Part shown: positions 22,131 through 59,253 of the stretch, in pieces
Position numbering within the stretch: the first letter of the stretch is position 1
How the letters are laid out: every line of letters starts with the position of its first letter
Source: Takakia lepidozioides
Taxonomy: Eukaryota; Plantae; Bryophyta
NCBI GenBank assembly: GCA_030704615.1
Contig: CM060734.1
Coordinates: forward strand, 45,384,001 to 45,448,000
Reading direction: 5' to 3'
DNA length: 64,000 nucleotides
The notes under the pieces: model-generated
Databases searched by the model: none
What the model was told of the DNA's origin: nothing
What the model saw: only the letters and a program-made list of their open reading frames with translations
Program-made: the position numbers and the translations under genes

Positions 22131-23036
22131 TTCAAAGCCCTAAGAACCACAAGGATTTTCTTTTGCAGTACTTACAACTTGTAACACAAGAAATTTTCCC
22201 AAGCTATTTTCTCAAGCTTTCAAGCTTTTTCAACACCCAAGTGCACAACTAACCCTTACACCCCGCACTCACAAGCATAATGATGTTTTTTTCTAGTGAT
22301 AAATGAAGTAGAGAATGATAGAAGCGGATTGCAATGTAATACATTAAAGCATGAAACCACCAGTACATGCTAAGGAGTTGCAATCCTAAACTCTTCTAAG
22401 TGCAAACCGACTCTATCACTCAATATAAATCAAGCAAATGACAAAGAAATCCACCATATAACAGATGTCACATATACAACCACTTAAGAACTAAAGCTAT
22501 GGCGGTGAGAGAGGCATCGGGACGCTCGATTAGAAAAAGATAAACCTGAGGCTAATATGGAGATAAGCCTCTCCACGTTCCAAAGTGAGATTTATCACCT
22601 CATTTGACACATGGAACCAAATTGAAGTCCCAATGCCAACAAAATACAAATAATATAAATGTATAATATCATAATTTGTTAGAAATAACTACTTTTAACT
22701 AACCTGCATGACTAAAACCATGACAACGCCAAAACCTCTAAAAGTCTTTTTGGACAGCTCTGATTCCAGGCCACAAGAGCTTTTTTACTTGGAACACAAA
22801 GAGAACCACCCCAAAGGAAATTGTAGAAGAGAACCCTTACATTTTGGAATAGCTTTGAAGGTGGCCAAACAATAGAGAAAAACCAGATGGAAGATGTCAA
22901 AACCTGGTTTAGAACTAAAACTCTACCTACGATGGAGAACATAGCCAAACTCCAATAAGTCAGTTTTGCTTTGAGCCTAGATAAAATGGCCGCAAATCTT
23001 TATTGTTCAAAGATATCTAGACCAAAACTGATACCC

Positions 23037-23504
23037 TGTGAAGCCTCAAAACGAGCCTGAAGCATATACTCCCTTCCTCTCAAGAAACAAGTTTTCACAA
23101 CAAATGGGCAAGCGGAAAGAGCAGGTGATGCGTGAGAGGAAGATCAAGCTTGAGGATCTGACACACAGGAGCTCTCATCCAAAGCTTGTACACCAAAATC
23201 ACATATACACTAACACCCGAGTACACCACCCTGACCTTGTCTCAGGACGCCGTCTTTATACAATAGTCATAGCTTTAGTTGCCCGCCGCGTGGCGAGGCG
23301 TCACAAGCCAAAACCCACGGCGCCACTTTGTAACCCTAGATCTGATGAAGGGCCAGGATTGAGCCACCAGCCAAAACTAACCCTAACCTAGATATCATTG
23401 TAACGGTTTAACGGCATTATACGTCAAAAATTTATACTATGGATGTGTATCGCCATTTGAATGAAACGGGTCATTTCTAGGCTAAGCAAATATGGGCCAT
23501 CACA
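23037..23504 (-). repeat. 3' LTR of the Gypsy element (468 bp including the 10-bp terminal extension)
   Basis: Matches 31405-31862 over 23047-23504, plus an extra TGTGAAGCCT at 23037-23046. Confidence 0.95.
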
Positions 23505-23824
23505 TTTGTGAAGCCTACCCCCCACGAAAAATCCCGAGCTCCGCGAAGGAAAACAAATAATAAGGAAATATCACCATCCACTGCTGGGTAAAATACCTAC
23601 CAAGGGAAAACCTGGCACCTGCAAGTTGGGCCGAGGACAAAACCCTTGGCTAGGAAAACCGTGTAGGGAGTACAGATGGTAATATACCATGAAACTTTAA
23701 AATGTTTCGAAGTCCTAGAGAGATCAAGTCCTAGGACCCCAAGAATCACCATCCGTAAACTAATACTAAGCCGCTGAAGATAAGATGATCAAGCTGAAGT
23801 AGATCGGCAAAGAAGATCAAGACA

Positions 23825-25186
23825 TTACCCCACCGTGCGCCCCTCCACATTAATACATGTAAGATAAAAAACTAGCTCAGAATGCACCAAGTCCCTCAAG
23901 GAAACAAGTTCGTCCCGCACTTCAGTATTAGAGCCTTGTGGAAGAAGGAGAGCACGTCGCCCATGTGAAAGTTGATAGATCACGTAGGGACCGTCGATCT
24001 TCAGTTTAGATTTGCATGCATGCTTGCCATGCTGTAATCGAACGCACACGGTCTGTTCCACCTGAAACAGGTTAGAGTACTTGACACGCTTGTGAAAATT
24101 ACGGGCCTGGGTTAGCTGAGCCTTACCAAAGTTCGTTTTGGCATCATGGATAGACATCGCATGCCGAGCATGAAGATCCTCAACAAAGGTATCAAGATCA
24201 ACCGGATCAGCAACAGTAGAGATAAGAGGGGTAGAATGCAAATGAGAGACACACTTGCAACCATATAACAACTCAAAAGGAGTCTTCTCGGTGCTAGCAT
24301 GCACGGCGGTGCGATAAGCAAAGAGAATAGGAAGAAGAAAGATATCCCACTCCCTGGTAAGTGCGCCATTCTTCTCCAACATTCGGCAAAGAATTTGGTT
24401 GAAGCGTTCCATAAGGCCATTGGTCTGGGGATGGTATGGGGCTGTGGTGGAATGCTTAACACCAAAATTGAAGCAAATCACTGTGAGGAGCTGGTTACAA
24501 AACTCCTTGCCCTGATCCGTTAGTATCTCCCGAGGACACCCATGTCGCATAAGGATCTCATTGAAGAAGAACTGAGCTACAGCATCACTAACCGTGGAAT
24601 GCAAAGGCCGGACTTCTATCCACTTAGTCAAGTAGTCGGTAGCAACACAAAGGTAGCTTCGACCATTTGATGTGAGTGCGAGGGGTCCTACTAAGTCAAT
24701 GTCAACACGAGCAAAAGCATGGGTGACAGGCAAAGGCTGTAGCTCATACAAGATCCGGGCCCTAGGGAGAGCAATGTTAGCACAACAATCTTCACACTTA
24801 GAGATGAACTCCGTGACGTTCCGGTGAATGCCCAGCCAATAGTAAACCTCTTGGATGCGAGCCACGGTTTTCTTGATACCAAGGTGACCTGCATACAAGG
24901 AACAATGGAAATGCTCCAATAAAGCATTCAGCTGGCTCCGTGGTGGCACCTCCAAGTAGCATGACACTCCCCCTCTAGTGAGTTCCTTGAAAAGCTTATC
25001 ACCCATGAATTGGTGAGTACACACATGATACAGAATTTGTTTACGCAAGGACTCGGAAAGGCCAGCTGACGAACGCCCTGATTGACATCGTTGGAGTAGC
25101 GCAGCATGTAGCTGATCATTCATGACTGCACTGCACATAAGAGGTAGACAATGGGTTTTAGAGAAGGTGGTATGGAGTGCCTGCAC
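23825..25186 (-). pseudogene. Gypsy integrase
   Basis: HHCC zinc finger (HCSLYAGHLG...CEDC), DDE core (IDLVGPL, LTDQGKEF, NGLMERFN) and GPY motif. No chromodomain. Confidence 0.9.
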
Positions 25187-25414
25187 CTATGATCTCCAAC
25201 CAGGGATACCTTCACCTCATTTGTTACTACTCATGGACAGCCAAATCGGCCTTGAGGTTCAAGCCAATAGTCACACCGAAGTGCAGCAGCTGAATTACAA
25301 CATATTCGGGGGTCTAGGAAAGAGAAGAACTGAAATACAACAAAGAACTTCCACCAAACCATCCGAATTTTCTCTAAGCGATAAATCCACCACACATACT
25401 CACACACGAATAAA

Positions 25415-26886
25415 TCAACCAGGATCATCAAGAAGGCTAGACCAGCCCCAAGCAGCCAATATGCCATTGGAATCCAAGGCCAAGGGGTGCTGATCTGCAC
25501 AAAGAAGGTTGAGAAGAGGGGCAAGATCAGGAGGAGGGGCTGCATCAGCAACAACAAGGTCATCCAAGATGAGCATAGGCCTGCTGACAGGAGGATCAAC
25601 CCGTGTGAGCGCATCAGCATTCGTGTTTTCCTTGCCCTTCTTGTAGACTATATCCATGTCAAATTCCTGCAGGTACATAGCCCATCTAGCAAGTCTGCCA
25701 TGAAGTTCCCTTGGTTTAACAAGAGCCTTAAGTGGAAGATGATCGGTCTCTACCACAAACCGGCTGCCATGTAAATATTGCCTGAAGTGCTTCACACCAA
25801 AGACCAGGGCTAGACCCTCCTTATCAGATACATGGAATAATTCCTTTCATGACGATCTAGACGACGAGATGCATAAGCTATTACATGCTCCTTACCTTCT
25901 ACAACTTGACATAAGATTGCAGAGATGGCAACATCTGATGCATCAGTATGAAGCAAGAAAGGTAATTCAAAGTTGGGAAACATCAGGATGGGAGCTGAAC
26001 ACAAAGCTTTGCGAAGGGTGTCAAAGGCAGCTTGCTAGGAGAAGGTCCAATCAAACTTGGCATCTTTGCACAACACCTTGGTCAGAGGGTGAGCAAGCAC
26101 GACAAAGTTCTTTATGAAGCGCCTATAATAAGAAGCCAGACCAAGGAAAGATTTAATACAATGTTTATCCATGGGGATAGGAAAGCCCCAAACAGACTCA
26201 AGCTTGGCAGGATCAGGAAGCAAACCATCTTTGGACAGGATATGACCAAGAAAGTGCAGCTCAGGCATGAACAACTCACACTTCTTGGGCTTTACCTTGA
26301 GTCTTGTAGTGCACAAATTGCTGAAAACACGCTGCAGATCAGTCAAGTGAGCATCAAAATTGGCTAAGTATACATTGATATCATCAACATAAATTAAAGC
26401 ACACTCCCAGCGAAGATTGCCCAAGACAATGTCCATGAGGCGTTGGAATGTAGAGGTGGCATTGCACAAACCAAAGGGCATGGTCTCATATTGGTATTTG
26501 CCCATGCGACACACAAAAGGTGTCTTTTCCTTGGCTGCTTCAGTGAGACGAACTTGCCAGATCCTGGGTAGTGGGTAGGCATCCTTCTTGGTGATGTCAT
26601 TCAGTTTTCTGAAGTCAACACAGAAGCGGGTGGTGCCATCTTTCTTACCAACCAGGACAATATGACTGGCCCAGGGAGAAACTGAAGGTTTAATCACACC
26701 AACATTTAGCATTTTCTGGACTTCTTCTTGGACTGTAGCACGCTCCTTGACACTCTCTCGGTATGCAAATTGTTTAATAGGAGGTCCTTCAATGACAATG
26801 TCATGTTGAATGATGGGAGTGCGCCCTAAATCAGTGGATCCCAAGCTGAAGACATCTAGATTTTTTGCAATAAGCATAATTTCCAC
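25415..26886 (-). pseudogene. Gypsy reverse transcriptase and RNase H (frameshifted, internal deletion)
   Basis: SPWASHIVLV.KKDG..RFCVDFRKLN, MPFGLCNA and YVDD; RNase H motifs TDASD, IAYASRRL, TDHLPL and NADALTR. Confidence 0.9.
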
Positions 26887-27063
26887 TTTCCTCCTCTAAC
26901 CTGAGGAGAGAGTGGTACCCAACTTAATTTCAGATAATACTTTGGTGAGGGTTGTCTTACTTTCAGGGCTGAGATCAGGGACAGGTGGTGGTGCAATTGC
27001 AGCAAAAGCAGCAACAGCTTCCAAGGGGCCGTGTTGGATGCCAATGGCCTCAAGTCTAAAGCC

Positions 27064-27360
27064 AACTTCCACCTTTTGTATTTCAGCAATGGGTAGAGCA
27101 ATGATACGAGCCAGAACCTGCCCCTTCTTAATAGTCATAGGGAAGCGCTCTGGATCAGCAACCAAAATCTTGACTTCTTGCCTATATCATTTATCTATAA
27201 CACCAGTGGCCACCAGGCAATGTTTAAGGGCAGTCAGTCTCCTCCACCCCTCAACTTCAAGGAAATGAGCAGCTGGACATAAGAAGGCAAGACCAGACTT
27301 AACCACCTTCTGGGTCATGGCAGGGATGGTGATGTTGAGAGGTGCACGAATCAGAGTAGA
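27064..27360 (-). pseudogene. dUTPase-like domain within Gypsy pol (between PR and RT)
   Basis: STLIRAPLNITIPAMTQKVVKSGLAFLCPAAHFLEVEGWRRLTALKHCLVATGVIDK*YRQEVKILVADPERFPMTIKKGQVLARIIALPIAEIQKVEV is colinear with trimeric dUTPases (GVIDxxYRGE motif III, IKKG..IAQL motif IV). One TGA at 27189-27187. Confidence 0.75.
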
Positions 27361-27416
27361 GTTCTTTGGAATAGCTATGGGTACCCCTGTTTACCCCCAA
27401 CACTGGGAACATGCCA

Positions 27417-28870
27417 CTAATATAAGAGTTGAAGATCAGGCTGAAACTTGTAGAAGTCATTCCAATTGAGGTTGGAGTGAGAGTTCTGCTGTACCTCCTT
27501 TACCACGGCCTGAACTCTGCATAGCTTGGCTGTAACAGACCCAGCTTTGATCTTCACTGCTTTCAAGGGAACCACTACTTCATATCCTTCTCCATTGTTA
27601 AAGCGAAGGGAGTAGTCTGCTAAGCTGATGGTGGCACCAGCTCCAATCATCCAGTCAAGGCCTAGTAGGAATTGATCTCCAATGGTAACTATGCAGGTAA
27701 CCACAACATTTTTTTATGAATTTTGATGGGTACAGTGACTAATCCTAGGGGCTCATACCTGGATCCATCTGCAATTAGTACCTCAATACCTGTGGCAGGG
27801 CATAGTTTAAGACCAAGAACTCTTACAACACTTAAAGGTATAGCAGATATAGTGCATCGAGTATCAACCACACATGGAAAGCTGAGCTCGTGGATATGGC
27901 ATTGGGCCATGAGGGGACTGATCTGCTGGCCAGCAGTCTGTCTACTGAGAGGACAATGCAAAGCTTTAAAGTTAGTAGATAAAACAGCTTGAATTGGAAC
28001 ATGAGAAGTAGGGTTGGTAGATGATGGAACTCTTGCCCCCTTCCCAAGAGCTAGTTTAAAAGAGAGGAAGAGCCACTAGCTGCCTTCTTATTCTTGATCA
28101 GTTCTGGTAGCCCTGCTCTGTCTGTCCAGTGTTCAAAGGAACCACAAATGTAACAGGTAGCACGATTACCCTCATAGGCTTGTCCAGTCTGGGTTCGACC
28201 TCTATTGTTACCACCTGTTTGTCCTTGGCCATGTCGAGGCTGCCACCTCCGTTGATGAGCCTGCATGGCAGCAAACTGAGTAGCCACAGACTCACTAAGA
28301 CTTCCTACAATATTAGCCAATCCTTGAAGAGTAAAGTCATCAGCTTTGCATTGCATAGTAGGAGGAACATAGGGTGATGATGTTGCAGACAGGCCAAGCT
28401 CTGAGCCCATTGGAGCTTGAAACTTGACATGATGTTGCATTGATTTGCTGTCAGCCAAGTCAGCCATCTTAAGATTAACTTCTGCTAACATAGTCTTGTC
28501 ATTGACAAAACGACGTCGCTGAGCCCAATTCTGAATAGTGGAAGGCAACCCAAGGAGAAAACACCTCTTAATCATACGATCACTCTCTGCTGGGTCTATG
28601 ATATTTTCAACAATAGCAAATTTGAGATCCATGTAATACTTCCACAATGACTCCCCAGGTTGGTAAGTCCTGGTAGATAGCTTGGTAAAGCAATCCAAAG
28701 GCCTCTTAGGAGGTTTGAACAAGGTCTTTGCCCATTCCATCAGAGTTGTCTAGTTGAGGCTGGGATCATCCATGACAGCTGCATGCAACAAGTCACGAGT
28801 TGGTCCCTTCATGCTCATCCTAAAGATCGCCATCATGAAATTCTCAGGCACTCATTTACACTAGCAATGA
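27417..28870 (-). pseudogene. Gypsy gag and aspartic protease (frameshifted)
   Basis: Gag YQPGESLWKYY and FLLGLP, degenerate knuckle CYICGSFEHW; protease VVDTRC (DTG-like) and FLLGLDW. Confidence 0.8.
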
Positions 28871-31404
28871 CCTCAAACATCTGAAGATATCTATCAAAGT
28901 CTTTTCCCATGGTATATTCTGGGTTGAGTAGTCAGCTGAGGGATCAAGTGACAAGACAAACTATGGTTGATGTGACCAGGGAGGACAGACACATGAGTAG
29001 GGCAACAGGGAACCATGGGAGCAGCACTACCATGCACATATCCAATATTAGATGCAAAATTATAACTCATATTATTATTGCTGGCTGATCCTACAGCAGT
29101 GGAAGTTGGCAGATGTGATGCCACCATGCCCATGGGGAGAGCAGGTGATACCACATTTGGCTGAGCAGAAGGGTAGGTCGACTGCAAGTGGGTTTGTGGC
29201 ATTCCACTCATGGAAAGAGTGGATGCCACTCCCACAAGTTGTATTGACACTGATCCTATACTGCTAGGAGGGATATTGCTAACATGCATACCTATGGACT
29301 GGCTAGAAACAAGGTGTGGTGGCACCCCAGCCTGTGGAGCAGGGAGAGCCCCCACTGATTGACCTGTGATGGCAGGAGTCGAAGCAGCAGATACACTAGA
29401 GGGCCCTTGCATCATGATACCCCCACCTTGAACAACACCATGCACATTCATCACATGAAAACTGCCCACATGCATACTCGAATTTGCAGGCAACAAATTC
29501 CCTCCCTCGAGAGTGGGACTGGGGAAATTCACAACAGGCAGCACACTAGGACTCAAGTTAGCAACCTGGGCCGGCATACTACTCGCAATAGCCCGAGGTC
29601 CGAAACTAACCCGATTCTGCCTTGTCCATGACCAGATCGCACCATGGGCTCACTACCTTGAACCTCCATGGCTCCACTAATCTAAGTAGGAAAAATTGTG
29701 GGGTTTGCCACCCCCGATTCCATGGGCAAAACAAGAGAGCCCTCCTTATCTATCCTCACGATACCATCATCATGCAACAGTTCTAAGTCCTCCTCAAAAT
29801 TACCAAAGTCCAAGGAAACTTCATCAATCAAGGTATTAACTGCCTGGAGGTTGTCCGACTCCCCACTTACATCAGGCATGCCTCTGCCAGGCGGCCCGAG
29901 TGGCTCTTGTGAACCAGACATGAACTTCTGTCTACCAGATCGCAACCAAGAACTTGCAGATGTGTTTAGCATGCAAAAACAAGGACAATCGTGGAAAAGA
30001 AAGAACCTCTAAGCCGTCGGGATGAGCAGCCGCGGCCTTGGGCTTGGCACCCGTGAAGCTTCGGGAGTCCAGACAGAGCAAGAAAGAAGCTTGAGTAGGT
30101 CGTGAGAACTGGAACCATAAACTGCCAACGCCAACCATTCCCACACTTTCTCGTCCTTAATCCAAAAGCCCACCCGTGTTGTGCCGTTCTCCTCCCATAT
30201 CCGGGACAGTACTGAGGAATTGGGAAAGCTATCCAGGTGATCTGCAACGCGAGGGCAAAGTACACGTTGCTCTTCAAAGCAGGTGCCTGGCAAAATCACG
30301 ATGTCGGACGACTACACATGTAAACTATTTCCCACGAGACCATCCACCAAGTCCATCGTCGTGGGTTTGTAACGACACACCCGGGAGTGAAATCGAAGAG
30401 CTCGTAACAACAAGGCTCTAGAGCCTTCGATTAACAATGAAAACCAAGAGTCTGCTGTCTGTTCGGTCATCAGCCACAGGCCCGACTCACGGCGGACGGA
30501 TAATGGTAAGTGGAGCCCGAGCGCTTCCCAGGCTACCTGCTGATGATGAAGAAGACGAGCCTTGAATACTTCTGGCCGGAAGTGCAGGGAGTTCCTGACA
30601 GCCACGACGGCTCAGGTCTGGCACAACGTACTCTCTCTCCCAAAATCAGAACTAGACCCAGGTCATACAAAAATCGCCTCATGATGACCGTTCAGACGAC
30701 GAGCATCCTCTCGAACAAATGCTTCAAACTTTTCAAACCACTGCACATCCTCTAGAAGCAACTCTCCTAGAGACTCATCATACTCCTGAGAGCACTCAAC
30801 ATCCCTCTCAAACTCTCTCTCTCGTTCTCTCGACCTGGATCATAATAATTATCAAAATTATAGTACTCTGGATCGCAACTATCTAGAGAGCTGGGCGACC
30901 TCTCATCTCTCGGTGACCAGGCCTCGGCCTCATTCACATTAACATCATATCTAGGGCTAGATGAATTCAAATGCACGACAAGACCATGACCATCAGTGCT
31001 GGGTTCAGGCAGGGGTGACACTGGCGAGGCAACAATGCCAAGCAGTGCACGTCGAGAGGGGTTAGTGGCAGCAAGATCAGTCGCTACTGTCAAGGCAGGG
31101 TCAGTCTCAATCTCAAAAACCAAATCAATTTGCACCAACATGCTTTCTCCCTCTCTGCGTGCTACACAGCTAGTACTACGTACTGAGGCCATCGTCCTGC
31201 AACACAACACAATGAGCAGGGTGAGAAAGCAAATACGAAACAGCAGGAGAAAACATCGCAAGGTGGCTGGCCGCCATCAGACAAGACTGATTAGAGAGCA
31301 ACGATCAAAAGATTAGCGCGCAAATCCCTCAACAACCTAATAATGCTGTCAGAGCGGGCAGTAGATGCTAAGACACCTAGACGCTACCCGGCTTCTCTCC
31401 ACCA

Positions 31405-31862
31405 CAAAACGAGCCTGAAGCATATACTCCCTTCCTCTCAAGAAACAAGTTTTCACAACAAAGGGGCAAGCGGAAAGAGCAGGCGATGTGCAAGAGGAGG
31501 ATCAAGCATGAGGATCTGACACACAGAAGCTCTCATCCAAAGCTTGTACACCAAAATCACATATACACTAACACCCGAGTACACCGCCCTGACCTTGTGT
31601 CAGGGCGCCGTCTTTATACAAAAGTCCTAGCTTTAGTTGCCTGCCGCGTGGCGAGGCGTCACAAGCCAAAACCCACGGCGCCACTTTGTAACCCTAGATC
31701 TGATGAAGGGCCAGGATTGAGCCACCAGCCAAAACTAACCCTAACCTAGATATCATTGTAACGGTTTAATGGCATTATACGCCAAAAAATTATACTATGG
31801 ATGTGTATTGCCGTTTGGATGAAACGGGTCATTTCTAGGCTAAGCAAATATGGGCCATCACA
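31405..31862 (-). repeat. 5' LTR of the Gypsy element (458 bp, lacks terminal CA)
   Basis: Starts TGTGATGGCCC and ends ...CGTTTTG, directly abutting the PBS TGGTGGAGAG. Confidence 0.95.
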
Positions 31863-33874
31863 ACCCAAACAACGTGTGGAATTCTCCTCTTTGCAACCAT
31901 CTCAGTCCATGTTCAAGACCCCAAGGAGAGAGTGGGAGAGCTCCAGGGTCGATGTCATAAGTCATATCCATTGATTGGGCCAATTAATTCTCAAATCCGA
32001 GGTAGAGCAGAGAAGGCCCTATCAATCTTATGCCTATATATTGGAATTGTTAAGCAATAAGACATTTCATCAGCATACATTTAGAGCTGCAAGGTGAGGA
32101 AGATTTGACATGGGACTTGCCAGAGGAGCCCAAGTCCAAGTCGCTTAAATCCGGCAAAAAGTACCATCGGATGTTATGCCTAACGTTATAATTTTACATG
32201 GTTTCTAATGTTTTTTGCATTAAATATATTTCCAATCGAAAGGAATGTTGTTCCCATAAGTCATGGCTTGTAGTGTTGAGCAACGCATAGCCCTAATTGG
32301 AGTACGAGTACAAAAAAGTAGACAAACAAGACATGCAAATGATCAAGTTATAGCCCAATCTTTATTTGGCACATACCACCTCAGAAGAAGTGTTTGTAGG
32401 TTCAAATCCACCAATTGGTGTCACAAAAGGTGTCCACCTTTCTGCCGGAAGACAGGCAGTAGCCCTTCGGGGTCAGGAGACACAATAATTTACGCTTCCT
32501 TCGACAGGCACGTCACATATTATTCTTGTAAAAGAGCATAGTCCAGGGCGATATGTTGACTAATCCTCACAACAATCCTACAGCTTGGGGCTCTTCAGCT
32601 CAAACAATATACTCTCTCTAATGATAACGGCAATTTGCCTACAGAATGCCGTTAGTTACAAGAAAGTTAACTTCGAGAAAAACAAAAGAAAAGAAAAGAA
32701 AAGAAAACTTCTCCTGTAACTAACGGCAGCCACTATGCCATTGCACTTTCCACTGTCCGTGACACTGTTGAGGAGTGTAGAAAGAGAGAGAGATGAGTGC
32801 CGTCATGGCTGCGCGCTCTGCTAGGCTCCTCTCTTGTCATTGCTGTCAACAAACTGGAGGCCTCACATCGCGTAGCATGTTAGCAAGCCAAGCTCTGGAG
32901 CTGAAATGGAGTTTCACCATGCGAGTGCAGGGCTCGCGATCCTTGGCAGTGATGGTTCTGAATCTTTCACAGCCTCGATTGATGACGAAAGAAGGTATGG
33001 GAAATCTAATCTTTGGTTTTTATTTGGGCTCTTATGTGGCTCTTTACATCGTGCGCGGAAGCCATCAAGATTCCACATGGGTTTTGAGTGCTGGTACTAC
33101 CTCCATCTTGGTTGAAGATGTTCACTTTATGGTTATGCTGGAGTGTGATTGAAAATTCCGTCGTCCCCATTTAATGAATTCTTCAGTATCCCATGAACCA
33201 TCTGAATTGTGGATAAATTTGTATCTCTGATTTCCTCATGGCAATGAAATGGTACTTGTTAACGTCCGCGGAAAGCTTATGTGACAAGAGAAAGCAAGAA
33301 AAAAGGAAGAAAGAGGGGGCCCTCCACAAGCAGCCCAAAAATAACTAGTGCTTGGTCTTAGAGAGAAAGACAGATGTCTTGACATTGTTTGGTTAAGGCC
33401 ATAGTCCTGTGGGACACTCTGTAATTACTGAAGGTTTTCCTCAAGGTAAGAATGGCAAGGTGAGAGCCCCTGGAAATCCCAGTGCCAGTTGGTGGAGTCT
33501 AAGCGTTTCAAGTGAGATCCTGAATGTCTAGGGCTAGTGACAACAGTAGTGTTATCATTGTCCCATCAGAGTGATAAAGGATAAAGAGAAGATGTATGTT
33601 CATTTGCCGATTTCTTCGGACTTGGCTGTTGCCAACCCTTGAGGTGACCGCGGAAGTGCAATCTTCTCGGAGCCAGTTCTGGGAATCTGACCACCCTGGT
33701 ATGGAAGGTCAGCCTGCAAACACCCTAGTTCGGAAGGACAATGCAGTTCGAGTGAATTGAGTGAGTTGTTCACACTAGAAGATGGTGCCAAAAGCATTCT
33801 GCTACTCTAGCCCATAAACCGACACAATTGATATTGATGACATATGAGAAATGGAAAATGGCGAAACGAACAAA

Positions 33875-34800: not shown

Positions 34801-35504
34801 TATTTCTCATCTAGGACGATACAGTGCTTGTCAAAGAGTGTCTTGTGATGGAAGCTGTTATGATGATAATTTTTGGACTGGATTGTATCTTCCATGGGTC
34901 AAATTACTGACAGTCTTACTCCAAACGTGGCAATTCAGTCCTTATTGTTACTATGTAAAGCTTTTGCATGTTCTTTGATCAAATACTTGGAGCTTTAGTA
35001 GGTTGTAGCCTGGTCTGGATGAAGTGCTGATTTTAGCTATGGTTGCTCATGTGCCAACTGCTTGTTTGTGGAGAAGAGTCCAAGATCACCAGACTTGCGT
35101 TATAGGCGATTAAAGGAGGTCCTATGGATCGAGGCTTGGTCGAACCCTCTGCGGGTGAACGTGGAACTATTTCCCATGATAAAAGGTCATTTACAATTTG
35201 TTGATGGTTCTAATCTCGTTGTACACCATGGAGCTCCAGGCCAAGAATACACCGGGTATTGTTTTGGTGATGAGTTGAAGGTTCCAACCCAAAGGAATAG
35301 AGTTGGTACAGGTTATTCTTAGAGTATATCACTGCAGTAGTTTCAAACCCAGATCCCTTTGCACAGATGTGCTCTTTGAGTCCTTATGAAAGGAGTTAAA
35401 GCAGTCGTTGCAAAGGGATCTTTCTTTGCAGTATCTAGTAGATTTGAGAAGTATGTGTGATATATGATGTAAAAGTTTGTAACTAATCGCTTTTAGCCTG
35501 CAGG

Positions 35505-38500
35505 ATGAAATGGGCCAAATTGTTGGAGCTCGACACTTCCAGCATGACAACTCATCATGCAGAGGGACTGAGAGAGGGAGTCAACCAAAATCCTTTGGAT
35601 GCTTGTCAGGATGTGAGGACACTACGGAAGGCAGGACGACTGAAGGAGTTGCTGCAAAATTTTAACCAGCCAGAAATTCCAGCAGACTCCAATATTTATG
35701 TGCGTCTCTTACAGGAATGCATCAAAGTGAAAGACCTTGAAACGGGAAGGCAGGTGCATGCCCACATGATCCAAAGTGGTTTCAGATCAAACATCTTCCT
35801 ATCCACCACCCTTGTCAACATGTATGCCAAGTGTAGGAGCCTGCTGGATGCACGCCAAGTGTTTGACGAAATGCCTGAACGAGATGTGTTTACGTGGACT
35901 ATGATGGTGGCCGGATACGCCAAGCATGGGTGTGGTAAGGAGGCTTTTGAGATCTATGAGCAAATGATGCGGGAAGGGGTCACACCTAACAAGGTGACAT
36001 TCATTTGTGTTCTCAACGCCTGTGCCAGCCTAGGAGCCCTGGAAAAGGGTAAAAAGGTCCATGCTGACATCGTCAAAGCTGGAATTACATCGTATGTAAA
36101 TTTGGAGAATACCCTTGTTGACATGTATGGCAAATGTGGGAGCATGGAGGATGCGCGTCAAGTGTTTGACAATATGGTTGAAAGAGATGTGGTCTCATGG
36201 AATGCCTTGATTGCAGGATATGCTCAGCATGAGGGTGGTGGGGAGGCTTTTGAGATATATGAGCAAATGATATGCAAAGGGGTGACACCCAACAGGGTCA
36301 CATTCATTTGTGTTCTCAATGCGTGTACGAGGCTAGGATCGCTTGAAAAAGGCAAAGAGATTCATGCTAACATTATGAAAGCTGGATTTGCAACAAATGT
36401 AACTTTAGAGAATGCCCTTGTGAACATGTATGCCAAATGCGGGAGCATGAAGGCTGCACTTCAAGTGTTCCACAATATGGCCGAACAAGATGTGGTCTCA
36501 TGGAATGCCCTGATTGCCGGGTATGCTCACCATGGGTGTGGTAGGGAGGCTTTCGAGATCTATGAGCAAATGCAACAGGAAGGCGTGATGCCTGACAAAG
36601 TCACGTTCGTTTCTGTTCTCAATGGATGTGCCAGCCTAGGATCCCTGGAGAAGGGCCAGCAGGTTCATACAGACATCACCAAGGCTGGAATTGTGCCAGA
36701 TGTAATTCTGGAGACTGCGCTTGCTGACATGTATGCCAAATGTGGGAGCTTAAAGGATGCACGCCAAGTGTTTGATAATACAGCTAAACGGAATGTGATT
36801 TCATGGAATGGGATGATTGCAGGATACGCTCAGCATGGATGTGGTAGGGAGGCTCTTGAGATGTATGATCAAATGCAACGAGAAGGGGTGACACCCAACA
36901 GGGTCACGTTCACTTGTGTGGTTAATGCGTGTGCTAGCCTAGGTGCCCTGGAAAGAGGAAAAGAGATCCATGCTGATATCAAGAAAGCTGGAATTGCGCT
37001 AGATATTGTTCTTGAGACTGCTCTTACTGACATGTATTCCAAATGTGGAAGTATGAAGGATGCATGTCAAGTATTCGACAACATGGCTCAACAAGACGTT
37101 GTGTCATGGAGTGTGATGATCACAGGATATGCTCAGCATGGGTATGGTATGGAAGCTATCAAGATCTATGAGCACATGCAACGGGAAGGGCTCACACCGG
37201 ACAGGGTCACATTTATTTGTGTTCTCAATGCGTGTGCCACCCTGGCCGCCCTGGAGAAGGGCAAAGATGTGCATGCTGACATCATCAAAGCTGGAATAGC
37301 GCCAGATATCATTGTGGAAGGTGCCCTTCTCAAAATGTATGCCAAATGTGGGAACATGAAGGATGCACATCAAGTGTTTGATAATATGGCTGAGCGAGAC
37401 GTGGTGGCGTGGAGTGTGATGATTGCAGGATATGCCCAGCATGGGTGTGGTAGGGAGGCTCTACAGATCTATGAGCAAATGCAATGGGCAGGGGTGACAC
37501 CTGACAGGGTCTTGTTCATATGCGTACTTAATGTGTGTGCCAGCCTAGTAGCCCTGGAAAAGGGTAAAGAGGTCCATGCTGAGATCATGAAAGCTGGAAT
37601 TGTGCCAGATCTCATTCTGGAAACTGCCCTTGTAGAAATGTATGCCAAGTGTGGGAACATTAAGGATGCCCGTCAATTGTTCGATAATATGGCTCAACGA
37701 GATGTAGTCTCATGGAGTGCGATGATAGCAGGATATGCTCAGCATGGGTATGGTAGGGAAGCTTTTGACATCTATGAGCAAATGCAATGCGAAGGGGTGA
37801 CACCCGACAGGGTGACCTTCATATGCATTCTTAATGCATGCGCCGGCTTGGCAGCCTTGGAAAAGGGTGAAGAGGTGCATGCTGACATCATAAAAAATGG
37901 GATTGTGCCAGATGTCATTCTGGATACTGCCCTTGCTGACATGTATGTCAAATGTGGGAGCATGAAAGATGCACGTCAAGTGTTCTGTAACATGGCTGAA
38001 CGAAATGTGGTCGCATGGAACGCAATGATTGCAGGATGTGCCCAGCATGGGTGTGGTAGGGAGGCCCTTCGACTATTTGAAGAAATGCAACAGGAAGGCT
38101 TGAAGCCAAATGGTATCACCTTTGTATCTCTTCTCTCTGCATGTAGCCATGTGGGCCTAGTGGAGGAAGGCTGTCAATACTTTGATACCATGGGTCGAGA
38201 CCACAGTCTCACCCCTACATTGGAGCATTTCTGCTGTGTGGTGGACCTTCTTGGGCGTGCAGGGCGGTTGGATGAGGCAGAGAACTTCATTCACAACATG
38301 CCAATCAAACCAGATGCTCGGGTGTGGAGGGCCTTGCTTGGTGCATGCAGGATTCATGGTGATGTGGAGGTAGCAGAACGTGCGGCAAAAGGTGTTGTGA
38401 AGAGTGATCCACAGCACACTGCAGCTTATGTGCTACTATCTAACATCTACGCTGCGGCTGGCAGGTGGGATGACAAAGCAAAAGTGAGGAAACAGATGCA

Positions 38501-38603
38501 GGTCAGAGGGGTCACAAAGGAGCCAGGACACAGCTGCATTGAAGTCGACAAAGAGGTGCATACATTTGTTGTAGAAGACAAATTGCAATCTATGCTGAAC
38601 TGA
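35505..38603 (+). CDS. PLS-class pentatricopeptide repeat protein, E/E+ type with truncated DYW (organellar RNA-editing factor family)
   Basis: 1032-aa ORF with seven 101-aa P-L-S triplets (303-bp period), then P2-L2-S2, E1, E2 and PG box (EPGHSCIEV). Stops just after HTFVVEDKL. Confidence 0.92.
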   Translation: MKWAKLLELDTSSMTTHHAEGLREGVNQNPLDACQDVRTLRKAGRLKELLQNFNQPEIPADSNIYVRLLQECIKVKDLETGRQVHAHMIQSGFRSNIFLSTTLVNMYAKCRSLLDARQVFDEMPERDVFTWTMMVAGYAKHGCGKEAFEIYEQMMREGVTPNKVTFICVLNACASLGALEKGKKVHADIVKAGITSYVNLENTLVDMYGKCGSMEDARQVFDNMVERDVVSWNALIAGYAQHEGGGEAFEIYEQMICKGVTPNRVTFICVLNACTRLGSLEKGKEIHANIMKAGFATNVTLENALVNMYAKCGSMKAALQVFHNMAEQDVVSWNALIAGYAHHGCGREAFEIYEQMQQEGVMPDKVTFVSVLNGCASLGSLEKGQQVHTDITKAGIVPDVILETALADMYAKCGSLKDARQVFDNTAKRNVISWNGMIAGYAQHGCGREALEMYDQMQREGVTPNRVTFTCVVNACASLGALERGKEIHADIKKAGIALDIVLETALTDMYSKCGSMKDACQVFDNMAQQDVVSWSVMITGYAQHGYGMEAIKIYEHMQREGLTPDRVTFICVLNACATLAALEKGKDVHADIIKAGIAPDIIVEGALLKMYAKCGNMKDAHQVFDNMAERDVVAWSVMIAGYAQHGCGREALQIYEQMQWAGVTPDRVLFICVLNVCASLVALEKGKEVHAEIMKAGIVPDLILETALVEMYAKCGNIKDARQLFDNMAQRDVVSWSAMIAGYAQHGYGREAFDIYEQMQCEGVTPDRVTFICILNACAGLAALEKGEEVHADIIKNGIVPDVILDTALADMYVKCGSMKDARQVFCNMAERNVVAWNAMIAGCAQHGCGREALRLFEEMQQEGLKPNGITFVSLLSACSHVGLVEEGCQYFDTMGRDHSLTPTLEHFCCVVDLLGRAGRLDEAENFIHNMPIKPDARVWRALLGACRIHGDVEVAERAAKGVVKSDPQHTAAYVLLSNIYAAAGRWDDKAKVRKQMQVRGVTKEPGHSCIEVDKEVHTFVVEDKLQSMLN

Positions 38604-48077: not shown

Positions 48078-50357
48078 TCACCAGTAGTCCCTGCAAGAAC
48101 AAGTCCCATCTTGGAAATGGTGGAAGCGGATGGCATCCCGTACAAAAACTTCTCGCCCAACAATCTTTGAGATGAACTTGGTGGCTGTATGGCAGTCACC
48201 ACATACCCGAACATTCTTGTTGACATGGATAGGCGTCCCAGGGGGCGTGCTGATGAGCCCAAAAGCAATGGCTAGCTTCTCACTGTGATGGCAAAGAGAG
48301 ATTTCCTTTTGCTGCTCCTCCACGTCATGCAATACAAAGTGGGTATCAGGCACATACCCAGCTTCCTTCATCTGCACAGACAATCTCATCAGCTCAGCAT
48401 GGATTGCTTCAATTTGTGGATGCAATTTGTCCTCTGCAACAAATGTATGCACCTGGTTGTCCACCTCAATCCAGCTGTGCCCTGGACCCTTTCCCACATC
48501 TCTGTCCTCCATCATTTTTCTGACCTGTGCTTGGTCATCCCACTTGCCAGCTGCAGCATAGATCTTCGATAGCAGCACATACGTTGCAGTATCATGTGGA
48601 TCCAACTTGACAAGGCAGCTTGCCACACGCTCTGCTAGCTCCAAATTGCCATGAGTTCTGCAGGCACCGAGCAAGGCCCGCCAAACCATCGCATTTGGTT
48701 CAATAGGCATTGTGTTAATGAGCTGTTCTGCCTCATCCAATTTACCAGCACGGCCAAGAAGGTCCACCATGCAGCCAAAATGCTCCAAGGTAGGTGTGAC
48801 GCCATAATCTTGACTCATCAAATCAAAATAATGATGGCCTTCATCCACTAGGCCCACATGGCTGCATGCAGAGAGAAGAGATAGAAAGGTGATATCATCT
48901 GGCTTCATGCCTTCCTGCCGCATTAGTTCAAAGAGATCAAGGGCTTCCCTACCATGCCCATGCTGGGCATATCCTGCAATCATCGTATTCCATGAGACCA
49001 CATCTCGCTTGGCCGTATTGTCAAACACTTGACGAGAATCCTCTATCCTCCCACATTTTGCGTACATGTCAACAAGGGTATTCTCTAGAATGGTATCTGG
49101 GGCAATTCCACTCTTCCTGATTTCAGCCAGGACTAGCTTGCTCTTTTCCAGCACTCCTAGGCTGCCACAAGCATTCAGAATGGCAGTGTACGTGACCATG
49201 TCAGGTGTCACCCCTTCTTGTTGCATTTGCTCATAGATTCTCAAAGACTCCTTAGCATGTCCATGCTTGACATATCCTACTATCATAAACGTCCACGTAA
49301 ACTTATCTCGTTCAGGAATTTCGTCAAATAGTTGGCGAGCATCCAGCATGAAATCCTCCTCACGCTGAGCATACCCTGCAATCATGGCATTCCATGATAT
49401 CACATTCCGTTCAGCCATATTGTCAAACACTTGGCGTGCATCCTTCACGCTTCCACATTTGGCATACATGTCAATGAGGACAGTCTCCAAAATAAGGTCA
49501 GTTCTAATCCCAGTTTTGATGATGTCAGCATGGACAAGCTTGGCCTTTTCCAGGGCTCCTAGGCTGGCACATGCATTAACAACATTAGTAAACATGACCT
49601 TGTCAAGTGCGACCCCTTCCCGTTGCATGTGCTCATAGATTTTGAAAGCCTCTTCAGCATGCCCATGCTTGGCATATCCTGCCATCATCATACTCCATGT
49701 GAACTTATCTCGTTCAGGCATTTTGTCAAACACTTGCCGCGCATCCACCACGCTCCCGCACTTGGTATACATGTTGACAAGGGTGTTGAGTAGAAAGAGG
49801 CTTGGCTTAAACCCACTTTGGATGATGTGGGCATGCACCTGCTTTCCCTCTGCTAGGGTTTTCATGTTGATACACCCCTGCAAGAGACAAACATAAGTGT
49901 TGGAGTCTGCTGGAATGCCTTGTTGGTTCAAAATGTGCAATGCTTCTCTCAATCGCCCCCCCTTGACTAGAGTCGTCACATCCCCTCGCATGCCAGAAGA
50001 GTTCTTGTTGACTCGCTCTCTTGGGTATGCACTTTTGATAAGATGGGTATGCACCTGCTTTCTGTGTGCTAGGTCCTTCATATTGATGCACTCCTGCAAG
50101 AGACAATCATACATATTGGAGTCTGCCCCAATGCCTTGGACGTGCAAAATCTGCACCGCCTCTTTTAAACATCCTGCCTTACATAGCATTCTCACATCTC
50201 TGCAAGGACCAGATTTCTTGTCAGCTCTGGTTGTCGGAGTAAAGGACCAGGCTAGTTGTGGTTGACACTTAAATTCAGTCACTGTCCTTGTTTCACCAGT
50301 CCCTACCCTTCGACCATAATTTGGACCATCATAAGATTGTGCATACCCTTGTATCAT
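48078..50357 (-). CDS. PLS-class PPR-DYW protein (C-to-U RNA-editing deaminase, PG-type)
   Basis: PLS repeats, E1/E2, PG box GPGHSWIE, HSEKLA, CGDCH, and terminal HHF...CSCRDYW. The first ATG is at 50357 (the ORF track starts at GTG 50378). Confidence 0.92.
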   Translation of the reverse strand: MIQGYAQSYDGPNYGRRVGTGETRTVTEFKCQPQLAWSFTPTTRADKKSGPCRDVRMLCKAGCLKEAVQILHVQGIGADSNMYDCLLQECINMKDLAHRKQVHTHLIKSAYPRERVNKNSSGMRGDVTTLVKGGRLREALHILNQQGIPADSNTYVCLLQGCINMKTLAEGKQVHAHIIQSGFKPSLFLLNTLVNMYTKCGSVVDARQVFDKMPERDKFTWSMMMAGYAKHGHAEEAFKIYEHMQREGVALDKVMFTNVVNACASLGALEKAKLVHADIIKTGIRTDLILETVLIDMYAKCGSVKDARQVFDNMAERNVISWNAMIAGYAQREEDFMLDARQLFDEIPERDKFTWTFMIVGYVKHGHAKESLRIYEQMQQEGVTPDMVTYTAILNACGSLGVLEKSKLVLAEIRKSGIAPDTILENTLVDMYAKCGRIEDSRQVFDNTAKRDVVSWNTMIAGYAQHGHGREALDLFELMRQEGMKPDDITFLSLLSACSHVGLVDEGHHYFDLMSQDYGVTPTLEHFGCMVDLLGRAGKLDEAEQLINTMPIEPNAMVWRALLGACRTHGNLELAERVASCLVKLDPHDTATYVLLSKIYAAAGKWDDQAQVRKMMEDRDVGKGPGHSWIEVDNQVHTFVAEDKLHPQIEAIHAELMRLSVQMKEAGYVPDTHFVLHDVEEQQKEISLCHHSEKLAIAFGLISTPPGTPIHVNKNVRVCGDCHTATKFISKIVGREVFVRDAIRFHHFQDGTCSCRDYW

Positions 50358-51968
50358 GGCAGCAGTTTTTGTTTTCACTCAAGGAGGAGTAGACCCACCC
50401 TCAATCCAAAGGGCCTCCTTCGTCTGCCTATGTTTCAAGTCCGCCGATCTTCGACTTTTCTGTGAATACCACCAGCGAGCAGCTGAGCAGCCAACTGTCA
50501 AGAACAGTCCCACACAGACCAGGCTACATCCACCAGGGCTCCAAGCATCTTCATCACAGGGAGAATTCTTGAACAACCTACTTCCATGCCCTGCTAGCAA
50601 GAGAGAACAATCAACTGGCAGCAACAGTTCTCTTTGCTGTTCTTTCGACAACAAAGAGGAAACATGACACTAGTCTATGCAACTGGAGAGAGTCCATAAA
50701 ACATCATCATCCCAGCATCATTCACATCCTTAGTGAGGACAGCCTCACCTTATCGAACCTTTTGTCCCCCCACTGTGAAGGATCTGAGGAGAACCCCTGC
50801 CGCAGACATTCTAAGCTTATTTCTTGGCCTCCAAAAGACAAGCACAACAGAGATCTTTAGGGGCTCCTTTCTCTCCTCTCTCTATCTCCTTGCCCCTTCA
50901 GACGTAGGTGTCACTGACAATGGCATCACACATGTCAGATATGGAGCAGCAGTGCCTGGTATCAACAGTATTTTCTAGGATGATGTCTACACCAATCCTT
51001 ACATGAACACTCAATTCCATGGGACTGGTTAGTGGTTGACAGTTGTGGGCTGAGTTTCGACATCCTCCTGGGTAATAACCCCGCAACTCGCTCCGGGAGG
51101 GTTGATATCCCGCGGGTCTTATGCCCTCAAGTAAATATCACAGCAAAATTTCGAAGGAAATGGTCGATTTGTACAATGCAATTGTGGGTATGGCCACATC
51201 TACATGTGTCACTAGGGACAGATACTGCGGTGAAAACTGCAACAAGGAAGGCGTGCACTTCCATTCGTACTTCAGCTGGATTTCCGTGGGCTATGCCTGA
51301 ACAATGTCACCAGTGTGTGTGTCTCTCTCAAACTGATTTCAAGGAGAAAATCTACCACAGTTCACACACACGGAAGGAGGTAAGGAGGAGAAGGGTTGAT
51401 TACAATCACGTTCTTCGAATGGGTTATGCAAGGATGGGTCAAAGGGGAACGGGGATCCAGCATTTGAGACCCAAAACACATTAAGACTGACATATCTGTA
51501 CCTTTCTTTGAAATTCCTGCAGGCTGCGAAGGCGTTGTAGCCAACGGTGGGAAGGGCCTGTAGCCCGGAATTGCTAGGCTGCGGGCCCAATTCAGCTCCA
51601 CAGCCGCGGCCTTTTCTCTGCTGCATGATGTGAGACCCTCCCGCCCTTCACCGCAATATAAAGACGGGGGCGTTGGTCATGGGCACTGCCTGCGCTGCAC
51701 GCTGCCATCTTCCTTCAGGAATGCAAACAAAAAGGCCACCAACATCCTACGTGGGATAGTCACCCATCACCTCCAGAACAAGGTGGTGGATGCTATCACA
51801 AATCACTGATTAGGAACTACTGTAGAGATTTGGCGCAGGGTCGGTGGATCCGACCCAAAATGTGAAAACATTGGGCAGCTGGTCGGATTCTCTCAGGTGA
51901 CCCGTGGTTGGAGATCCCGCTGTCTGCTACGCGAAGCTCTGCGTGAGAGAATTCTCTTCTAAGGAGGA

Positions 51969-54981: not shown

Positions 54982-55001
54982 GTCTCTTCGGAGACATCTG
55001 A

Positions 55002-55033
<32 letters not shown>

Positions 55034-55085
55034 GGCCCCTGCGCAAGGATGACACGCACAAATCGAGAAATGGTCCAAATTTTTT
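54982..55085 (+). ncRNA. U6: U6 spliceosomal snRNA
   Basis: GTCTCTTCGGAGAC 5' hairpin, ACAGAGA box, AGC triad/ISL (TTAGCATGGCCCCTGCGCAAGGATGA), and a T-run terminator. Confidence 0.97.
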
Positions 55086-56174: not shown

Positions 56175-56370
56175 TCAGCTAAAGTCCATTGTACTCTGCA
56201 AGAGACATTTGGATTGGCCTATAGAAGCAACCCACATTCACTATTGCGGGAAAGTTGACAAACAAACTAGAGTCAGCTAAAGTCCATTGTACTCTGCAAG
56301 AGACATTTGGATTGGCCTATAGAAGCAACCCACATTCACTATTGCGGGAAAGTTGACAAACAAACTAGAG
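56175..56370. repeat. perfect 98-bp tandem duplication
   Basis: 56175-56272 is identical to 56273-56370. Confidence 0.9.
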
Positions 56371-58683: not shown

Positions 58684-59253
58684 CTTCTCTTTCCACTGGT
58701 CATCTCCTTCATTCGCAGCCTGAGTGCTTTCCAGACCGGTGCTGGACCGGAAACGGATATTGCCTTCCACCTCCAGATTGATGTTGGGGGGCAACTTTGC
58801 AGAATTTGGCTGCGTTTGACGTGAAATCAGATCACCCCCCACAGAAGAATCAATTACACGTAACCCACAACACAGCCTAACGTCAACCTCCAGAAACCAC
58901 CACTAAGTTCAAAACCAGAAACCCGTATGTGCAGTGCCACCTCTGTGCCGCAAATTCACAAAACTCCTGCACTAACCCAATCTGAGGAGCATGGAATGCT
59001 AAGAACAACGGCTGGAGATACACATTATCCATGCAAACAAGAATCTGTTTTGCAACAATTGTTGCGTGACCGGCTCGAAGAACAGCTGGTTTCTTCTCTG
59101 TTTTTGTGTGCAATGTTATAAAGCACTTTGCCTCCAAGTGTTGCCAAATGATTGACGAGACCAAGGATAACCAAACGACACGGGACACTTGGCCACCGAC
59201 TCTGTAGCAAGGGAATCAACAATCAACAGTTTACCACTGACGCCATGAAAGCA

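Follow-up and report, generated by a model that had tools for sequence, protein, structure and literature searches.

Structure and coding content of the element

The window, a stretch of 64,000 nucleotides from the moss Takakia lepidozioides, carries a minus-strand element running from 31862 to 23037 in the order A-PBS-gag-pol-PPT-B-NN-A-B, where A is a 458-bp repeat, B a 10-bp repeat and NN a two-nucleotide spacer (Table 1). The first-pass annotation had proposed this layout, and repeat comparison of the window sequence reproduced it. The pol order is that of Ty3/gypsy, with the reverse transcriptase followed by RNase H (to about 25660) and integrase, and with an upstream protease detected only below the cut-off. 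Additionally, the element has a DDE integrase with an H2C2 finger, a PBS after the 5' repeat, a PPT before the 3' repeat and a target site duplication (TSD). Its LTRs are not equivalent TG...CA repeats, as the 5' repeat is short by its last 10 bp, in the window and in other copies. Judged from its sequence, the element is a gypsy by its proteins and a variant by its ends. The window copy is a dead member of a multi-copy Ty3/gypsy family.

Table 1. Features of the element and its flanks, in element order (window coordinates)
Feature	Position	Strand	Evidence
TSD, left copy, GGGT, 4 bp	31863..31866	-	repeat comparison
Repeat A1, short 5' LTR, 458 bp; starts TGTGA, no end CA; TATAAA at 31613-31618	31405..31862	-	
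PBS, begins TGGTGGAGA, zero bases from A1	31396..31404	-	A1/PBS junction repeated in other copies
Stop-free stretch of 169 codons preceding gag; matches no family	30767..31276	-	profile search
Broken gag region; part 28051-28749 similar to gag/CCHC clusters	28051..29649	-	feature score 0.92, lead-level
Putative aspartic protease remnant; position fits	27692..27934	-	gag-asp_proteas E=0.05, below cut-off
Putative dUTPase-like remnant; two consecutive pieces, stop between	27076..27390	-	PF00692 positions 18-70 and 72-108, E=0.047 and 0.057, below cut-off
Reverse transcriptase; stop-free, internal deletion relative to relatives	26035..26895	-	RVT_1 E=5.6e-21
RNase H, frameshift-split	25660..26034	-	RT_RNaseH in two frames, E=1.8e-14 and 3.7e-17
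Integrase, own open frame, 453 codons	23825..25186	-	profile search and alignment with relatives
Putative polypurine tract, a G-tract assigned by position	23517..23524	-	
Repeat B1, 10 bp, ending TCACA; internal duplicate of right-hand tip	23507..23516	-	bridged without deletion in other copies
2-nt spacer in pre-encoded CA-NN-TG junction; AA in the window copy, mostly GA elsewhere	23505..23506	-	
Repeat A2, 458 bp	23047..23504	-	95.6% identity to A1
Repeat B2, 10 bp, right end of the element; A2/B2 join without gained or lost base	23037..23046	-	recurs in other copies with unlike flanks
TSD, right copy, GGGT, 4 bp	23033..23036	-	repeat comparison

The integrase methionine at codon 22 aligned to the start of relatives. 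The protein contains an H2C2 zinc finger, the D164-D224-E260 triad (D,35,E) and a GPY motif; the finger and the triad are intact, and no chromodomain matched within it. The reverse transcriptase search gave top identities of about 52%, mostly within two stretches. The gag region had no match to the Pfam gag profile. A profile search of 35 element segments, from which 17 of 52 listed frames and any broken segment shorter than 60 codons were left out, yielded no tyrosine recombinase and no Pfam match to a chromodomain or an additional archaeal-type RNase H; no Dnmt3 domain was found in the element by profile search.

The direct repeats A1 and A2 align without gaps and differ by 20 mismatches (14 transitions and 6 transversions; K2P 0.045). 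A1 ends in ...CGTTTTG and passes without a gap into TGGTGGAGA, the PBS start, so that the 5' LTR has no terminal CA and adjoins the PBS, as had been claimed. The PBS may be that of tRNA-Ala; no tRNA genes were found in the 64-kb window. Likewise, the 10-mer B (AGGCTTCACA) proved to be confined to B1 and B2, the only exact copies in 64 kb; the nearest other matches within the element, at 30061 and 29123, have two mismatches each and both lie in the coding region. On the element's composition, an exact 10-mer at one given position has a probability of 7.6e-7. The G-tract TGGGGGGT directly adjoins B1, which is followed by AA and A2, placing the PPT 12 bp from the long repeat. The full element has 5-bp inverted termini (TGTGA...TCACA), and no stable hairpin was predicted at the junction (z = -0.33). 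The flanking duplication suggested earlier is present, refined to the 4 bp GGGT, since base five differs between the two sides.

The layout in other copies

For the other copies, we used contigs from two sequencing studies, all of DNA; in either mapping, a single sample, possibly the window's own source, supplied three of four runs. The TSD and both ends together were read on the window copy only. Of the loose contig ends, 24 of 404 were listed in the first mapping and 22 of 68 in the second. Read depth reached thousands on the element and 25-70 on the flank, depth sums not being copy numbers.

The PBS stood immediately after A (position 23047) in 2, 4 and 1 contigs of runs X2, X3 and X5, and one 88%-alike copy and one X5 contig bridged this border with just 1-2-nt indels. 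No 10-nt insertion was listed at the border in three complete tables of the second mapping, and B did not precede the PBS in any contig listed from either study. At the other end (position 31405), A was followed by B and then by an unlike flank in sets of 6, 9 and 8 contigs, the A/B2 join being exact in most contigs listed; in run X3, 11 contigs ended at 23037. The stretch PPT-B-NN-A was bridged without the 12-nt gap in four contig records of other copies. With the 10-mer missing in front of the PBS and present behind the PPT in other copies too, the layout belongs to the family and does not stem from a 10-bp deletion. The first-pass annotation had predicted that the short 5' LTR and the 10-mer beside the PPT would recur, and the 10-bp deletion it had named beforehand as the refuting outcome was looked for and did not turn up.

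It had also predicted an AA spacer in every copy, of which the 2-nt length stood and the letters did not: the spacer was read as GA in about 97% of depth (position 23506), and AA is a mutation particular to the window copy, the family spacer being GA. Copies opened at the other att, put forward as strong support, failed to appear, with 0 go-back joints among the 15 joints listed; nor were tandem copies with an A-B-NN-A junction among them.

A proposed route through joined cDNA ends

Canonical reverse transcription cannot produce the right tip of the element, because its ten letters are kept inside the element and not in the left repeat; on this point the earlier logic holds. The route that the layout makes most likely, and that we consider probable, is that the cDNA ends are joined and integrase then cuts the pre-encoded CA-NN-TG junction. 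Priming by tRNA and PPT would proceed as usual, giving a linear cDNA with a terminal repeat B-NN-A of 470 bp and no usable att at either physical end. Its right end (the end of A) would then be joined head to tail with its left end (the start of B). Either host end-joining would close it into a 2-LTR-type circle, or the reverse transcriptase would make an end-to-end jump with short strand displacement; we hold the two options to be about evenly balanced. At the B-NN-A junction adjoining the join, integrase would cut both strands after CA, leaving the usual 2-nt 5' overhangs, and insertion would occur with a 4-bp stagger. The product predicted from these two steps equals the observed layout base for base. 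Such a duplication was found in none of 13 control LTR pairs (0/13), which bracket or adjoin RT/INT and were chosen by eye from 71 loci (L120-L190).

The second, internal B-NN-A junction would be ignored by integrase, probably because B is just 10 bp: the remainder of the right-hand att would lie at the end of A and be brought in by the join alone, which would thus complete the att site. Left by itself, the internal junction probably forms only part of an att site, which would account for the unopened other junction. As a counterpoint, a free circle whose att sites were equal should often open at the other junction. The chemistry has precedent: at LTR-LTR junctions, the integrases of HIV-1 and foamy virus cut each strand after CA (PMC1905944, PMC1180852), and in the IS3 family, DDE enzymes use circle junctions with spacers of 1-2 bp for insertion (PMC3299598). 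HIV-1 integrase is sensitive to the central junction bases, and the cuttable retroviral junctions described are palindromes (PMC1905944); the GA spacer, unlike these, is not self-complementary.

The same ends could arise by a PAT/Ngaro-like route, in which the RNA would extend through A2 into B2, the A/B join would be inherited through RNA, and B1-NN-A2 would be only the bridging template that rebuilds the end junction for integrase. Homology-free end-joining would then be unnecessary, the layout formally equals the A1-B1-A2-B2 split direct repeats described for PAT, Ngaro and Viper (PMC4157794), and the exactness of the A/B2 join is what inheritance predicts. However, this would require minus-strand priming at the RNA 3' end with homology of at most 10 nt, and it leaves unexplained the TGG-type PBS at A and the G-tract at B1 across copies. 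Priming at that PBS would discard everything 3' of R, B2 included. We judge this route unlikely.

Two cDNA molecules might also be joined into a head-to-tail dimer, from which integrase would excise a unit borrowing its neighbour's B. An identical provirus would result, and tandem LTR-retrotransposon arrays from single insertions are described in plants (PMC11899658), but the tandem copies that this predicts were absent among the joints listed, and the ends of one molecule are closer together than the ends of two; we regard the dimer as very improbable. Least credible is an ordinary TG...CA element that has lost 10 bp of its 5' LTR and whose 10-mer at the PPT arose by coincidence or misassembly. 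A2 and B2 alone do resemble a normal 468-bp TG...CA LTR, as solo LTRs would, but both junctions recur in diverged copies and in the second study, B precedes the PBS in no contig listed, and chance would give the 10-mer at the rate stated above, so that this reading is largely refuted.

Returning to joined cDNA ends, we lean slightly towards a wider reading, taken as one joint proposition: an overlooked, widespread gypsy branch (mosses, charophyte algae, perhaps fungi and animals) may integrate obligatorily from end-joined cDNA, with the att pre-encoded beside the PPT, completed by the join and opened like an IS3-family circle junction. If true, it would give LTR retroelements their first lineage with a 2-LTR-type circle as its normal integration precursor. 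LTR circles as true integration precursors were proposed in the 1980s and, according to PMC1180852, not substantiated; in HIV-1, circle integration serves as a reserve route at most. A family that could not be rebuilt without the end-join would be a natural, directly testable system, and it offers one open integrase gene. There is also a blind spot, in that surveys requiring TG...CA on both LTRs and TSDs miss such elements, while their solo LTRs look ordinary.

Relatives and known systems

A 17-base LTR pattern retrieved 119 loci from metagenome contigs, which were judged chance matches because none (0/119) had a BLAST match to the element. Among viral contigs, 0 of 18 candidates were relatives, and a second search gave 3 weak ones of 79. 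Prokaryote genome contigs yielded 68 loci, most of which were IS3-like genes or came from eukaryotic contaminants, and the nearest fungal-type loci are too short for their ends to show. The 140 integrase matches included no plant-named proteins. In an integrase tree built by a quick method from 61 rows without plant reference lineages, the window protein fell on a long branch outside the supported clades.

The element shares with canonical Ty3/gypsy elements the PR-RT-RH-INT order, the DDE integrase, the PBS, the PPT and the TG...CA element ends; unlike theirs, its two LTRs are not equivalent, as CA is missing next to the PBS and the 12 bp of B-NN separate the PPT from the LTR. The chromodomain of chromoviruses and the archaeal-type RNase H of Tat had no Pfam match in the 35 segments searched. 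Among plant non-chromovirus clades, a 4-bp TSD like that of the window copy occurs in 96% of Selgy and 100% of Phygy (PMC6317226). Selgy uses a tRNA-Ala primer in 90% and, at 4.4-6.7 kb, is shorter than the window copy (PMC6317226). Phygy averages 8.6 kb, a length similar to that of the window copy, with a tRNA-Trp/Thr PBS and the target NCGN, from which the window's GGGT, judged on one copy, departs (PMC6317226). That survey retained an element only if it had TSDs and if each LTR carried TG and CA, and therefore could not score the A...B-NN-A-B layout.

No paper explaining the layout was found in the literature searched, a scope outside which lay Repbase, GyDB, Dfam and most subscription journals. 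The earlier claim that the architecture is undescribed held for the mechanism within that literature, and not for the repeats: the Fig. 4c legend of PMC5890265 assigns DIRS-type repeats, unexplained there, to a gypsy element, KnitGypsy-Dnmt3 of Klebsormidium nitens, the DIRS order being defined as A-coding region-B-A-B. The layout is thus a variant of Ty3/gypsy not wholly without precedent. Compared by description only, the two elements share gypsy domain content and a DIRS-like repeat arrangement; KnitGypsy-Dnmt3 differs in its Dnmt3 domain, and the text of PMC5890265 concerned with it gives no PBS, PPT, att, TSD or mechanism. The element's name was unmatched in the supplements of that paper. 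KolobokP was considered as the closest system and rejected, because it is a DNA transposon whose two ends both carry full repeats (PMC9587614).

PAT, Ngaro and Viper share the A1...B1-A2-B2 order and thus have split direct repeats as found here, but they use a tyrosine recombinase, whereas the moss element has a DDE integrase, a PBS, a PPT, a TSD and a B of only 10 bp (PMC4157794). With the IS3 family (IS2), the proposed route would share a DDE enzyme acting on abutted ends 1-2 bp apart; those are bacterial DNA transposons whose junction is made by transposase from the donor, without reverse transcription (PMC3299598). With HIV-1 and prototype foamy virus it would share an integrase that cleaves both strands of an internal LTR-LTR junction after CA (PMC1905944, PMC1180852). 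Retroviral 2-LTR circles can feed integration (PMC4372172), their att junction being made by end-joining as a side route (PMC1905944, PMC1180852, PMC4372172), whereas in the moss element the att is encoded 10-12 bp from the join and integration would depend on this route.

Layout and coding content of the element

The gypsy-type element lies on the minus strand, from 31862 to 23037, and is bounded by 4-bp GGGT duplications. Its long repeats, A1 and A2, differ at 20 positions (K2P 0.045). The 3' end of A1 has no CA, and TGGTGGAGA directly adjoins it. The 10-mer B is present in the 64-kb window only as B1 (internal) and B2 (right-hand tip); the chance of a 10-mer at one given place is 7.6e-7. 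The overall order is A-PBS-internal-PPT-B-NN-A-B, NN being a two-base spacer, and the element ends are 5-bp inverted repeats. Inside the long repeat (31674-31695, minus strand, and the A2 equivalent), TTACA is followed after three bases by TGGCGCCG, an arrangement that looks like a canonical LTR end plus a tRNA-Asp type PBS; it may be the relic of an old junction or mere coincidence.

Repeats of the element and other features in the window
Feature	Position	Strand	Description
A1	31405-31862	minus	458-bp repeat, ungapped against A2
A2	23047-23504	minus	458-bp repeat, ungapped against A1
G-tract (putative PPT)	23517-23524	minus	followed by B1, two bases, A2 and B2
Apyrase (GDA1/CD39)	57292-58902	minus	one unbroken 536-codon frame
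U6 snRNA gene	54982-55084	plus	

Pfam identified RT, a frameshifted RNase H and an integrase, the last being a single open frame of 453 codons in which the zinc finger, the D-D(35)-E triad and the GPY motif are intact. Protease and dUTPase-like remnants scored below the Pfam cut-off, and the gag region resembles gag/CCHC clusters as a lead-level match. Tyrosine recombinase, chromodomain and methyltransferase had no Pfam match in 35 scanned element segments (5 and 30, from two scans). The window copy is dead due to stops, frameshifts and an RT deletion. The closest integrases are 35-45% identical, those with names being fungal and animal, and the window integrase falls in no supported clade of a quick tree. 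It has a frame and a start of its own, some hundreds of bases past RNase H (interval 25186-25660, minus); a separate integrase frame also occurs in fungal-type relatives (locus L120). The segment 29700-30660, about 1 kb between the upstream frame and gag, had no Pfam match on either strand and may be captured DNA. Among loci L120-L159, many prokaryote MAG records have contigs bearing eukaryotic gypsy elements, several with integrase upstream of RT; these contigs are host contamination.

Elsewhere in the window, long open frames at 35487-38603 (plus, confirmed by Pfam) and 48078-50378 (minus) are PLS-type PPR genes with 303-bp repeats, and most of the window's repeats stem from them. The apyrase, possibly a retrocopy, has its best named matches in Ceratodon (61%) and Physcomitrium (58%), with at most 56% elsewhere, which points to a probable moss host. 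A perfect 98-bp tandem duplication at 56175-56370 is a recent event or an assembly artefact.

Junctions in other copies

The stretch was covered by five sequencing runs (X1-X5) from two studies, four of them from one sample, possibly the window's own source. The 3' end was compared with contigs of X1, X2, X3 and X5, and the A1|PBS junction with X1, X3, X4 and X5. Contigs whose agreement with A stopped precisely at its final base and which ran on into PBS-type sequence numbered 2 in X2, 4 in X3 and 1 in X5. A1|PBS was bridged by one diverged copy, a single contig shared by X1, X3 and X4 with 19 differences in 154 bases, and by one X5 contig, each with more than 31 bases on either side; two further bridging contigs with shorter overlap were left out of the count. 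Contigs leaving A at the same base, then passing through B into disagreeing flanks, numbered 6 in X1, 9 in X3 and 8 in X4. In X3, 11 contigs stop at 23037, with agreement of 0.45 past that point. PPT-B-NN-A was bridged with a net length difference of +1 to +2 (three X1 contig records and one from X5). The short 5' LTR beside the PBS and the 10-mer after the PPT, which the first-pass annotation expected in other copies, thus recur in bridging contigs from both studies, and the A-PBS / PPT-B-NN-A-B layout is real and family-wide. A 10-base insertion at A1|PBS appeared nowhere in the complete tables for that comparison (X1, X3, X4, X5), and a deletion in this one copy is scarcely credible.

The AA spacer, proposed as a family feature, did not hold. 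Position 23506 has another base in 41 (X1), 28 (X2), 31 (X3) and 4 (X5) contigs, which make up 96-97% of the depth for X1-X3 and the whole of it for X5; the family spacer is therefore GA. The AA of the window copy reflects a transition that hit a cytosine in CHG context, likely after insertion.

Around 23493-23524, 4 X1, 3 X2, 4 X3 and 1 X5 contigs match from 23493 upward (PPT side) but share only the initial 11-12 bases of the repeat before they diverge; they may belong to a sister family that combines this junction with a different LTR body. One contig at single-copy depth joins the repeat's first base (23504) straight to internal 23976, which may reflect deletion of the PPT and B or insertion of one copy into another. 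At 31405-31406, one locus present in both studies has a changed last base of A right before B, either a later mutation or an imprecise join.

The controls were 13 repeat pairs of gypsy-type loci, chosen among those whose integrases were the closest that could be retrieved. None (0/13) had a comparable duplication, the longest shared word being at most 6 against 10 in the element; mostly, CA was followed by 1-3 bases and then TGG.

Proposed integration route and its rivals

In canonical reverse transcription, the right cDNA end is copied from bases beside the PBS, and the left end begins at the PPT. Here such a cycle would give B-NN-A...PPT-B-NN-A, with a right end lacking CA and the left att buried 12 bp in. 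A new B2 cannot come from the parental one, since RNA lying 3' of R is lost at strand transfer. The earlier claim that this cycle is unable to make the right end was therefore upheld, and the layout is not explained by the textbook cycle. Instead, the right cDNA end would be joined to the left end, by ligation or an RT jump, giving A|B-NN-A-PBS; cutting of both strands after CA would leave two normal processed ends, and insertion would yield the provirus exactly as seen. We consider this end-join, followed by integrase re-cutting of the pre-encoded junction, probable, its intermediates being inferred.

Retroviral integrases are capable of such a cut. HIV-1 integrase cuts an LTR-LTR junction symmetrically after CA and requires the DDE triad (PMC1905944), foamy-virus integrase does likewise, with 36/40 junctions precise (PMC1180852), and HIV 2-LTR circles are able to feed integration (PMC4372172). 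For IS2, the insertion substrate is a circle junction whose spacer measures 1-2 bp (PMC3299598).

A free circle would hold two B-NN-A junctions, so opening at the other one would be expected often. Copies opened there had been named as strong support; the corresponding B-to-A-end go-back joint was found in 0 of the 15 joints listed (3'-end contigs of X1, X2, X3 and X5), where contigs lose rare forms and a common class should still appear. This absence counts against a simple free circle. A join between two cDNA molecules is very improbable. For end-joining with re-cutting, we infer that the internal B1-NN-A2 junction is an incomplete att. The usual integrase footprint is longer than 10 bp; B falls under it, so the bases beyond B would be those of A in the joined junction alone, the internal one having the PPT there. 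A read-through route of the PAT/Ngaro type is unlikely. PAT, Ngaro and Viper share the element's repeat order but use a tyrosine recombinase (PMC4157794). That the end-joined route is obligatory in its broad form, across a gypsy branch beyond this family, is a view we favour slightly.

Comparison with known gypsy elements

The element is Ty3/gypsy in its proteins; its ends break the rule of two equal LTRs. A 4-bp TSD like that of the window copy is found in Selgy and Phygy, non-seed-plant clades that are candidate relatives; the survey describing them kept elements only with TG and CA on both LTRs (PMC6317226). The first-pass annotation knew of no description of the architecture. In the literature searched, the only printed precedent found for permuted or split LTRs on gypsy was a Klebsormidium element with DIRS-type repeats, noted in the legend of Fig. 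4c and left unexplained (PMC5890265). The layout thus has one printed mention, which offers no mechanism.
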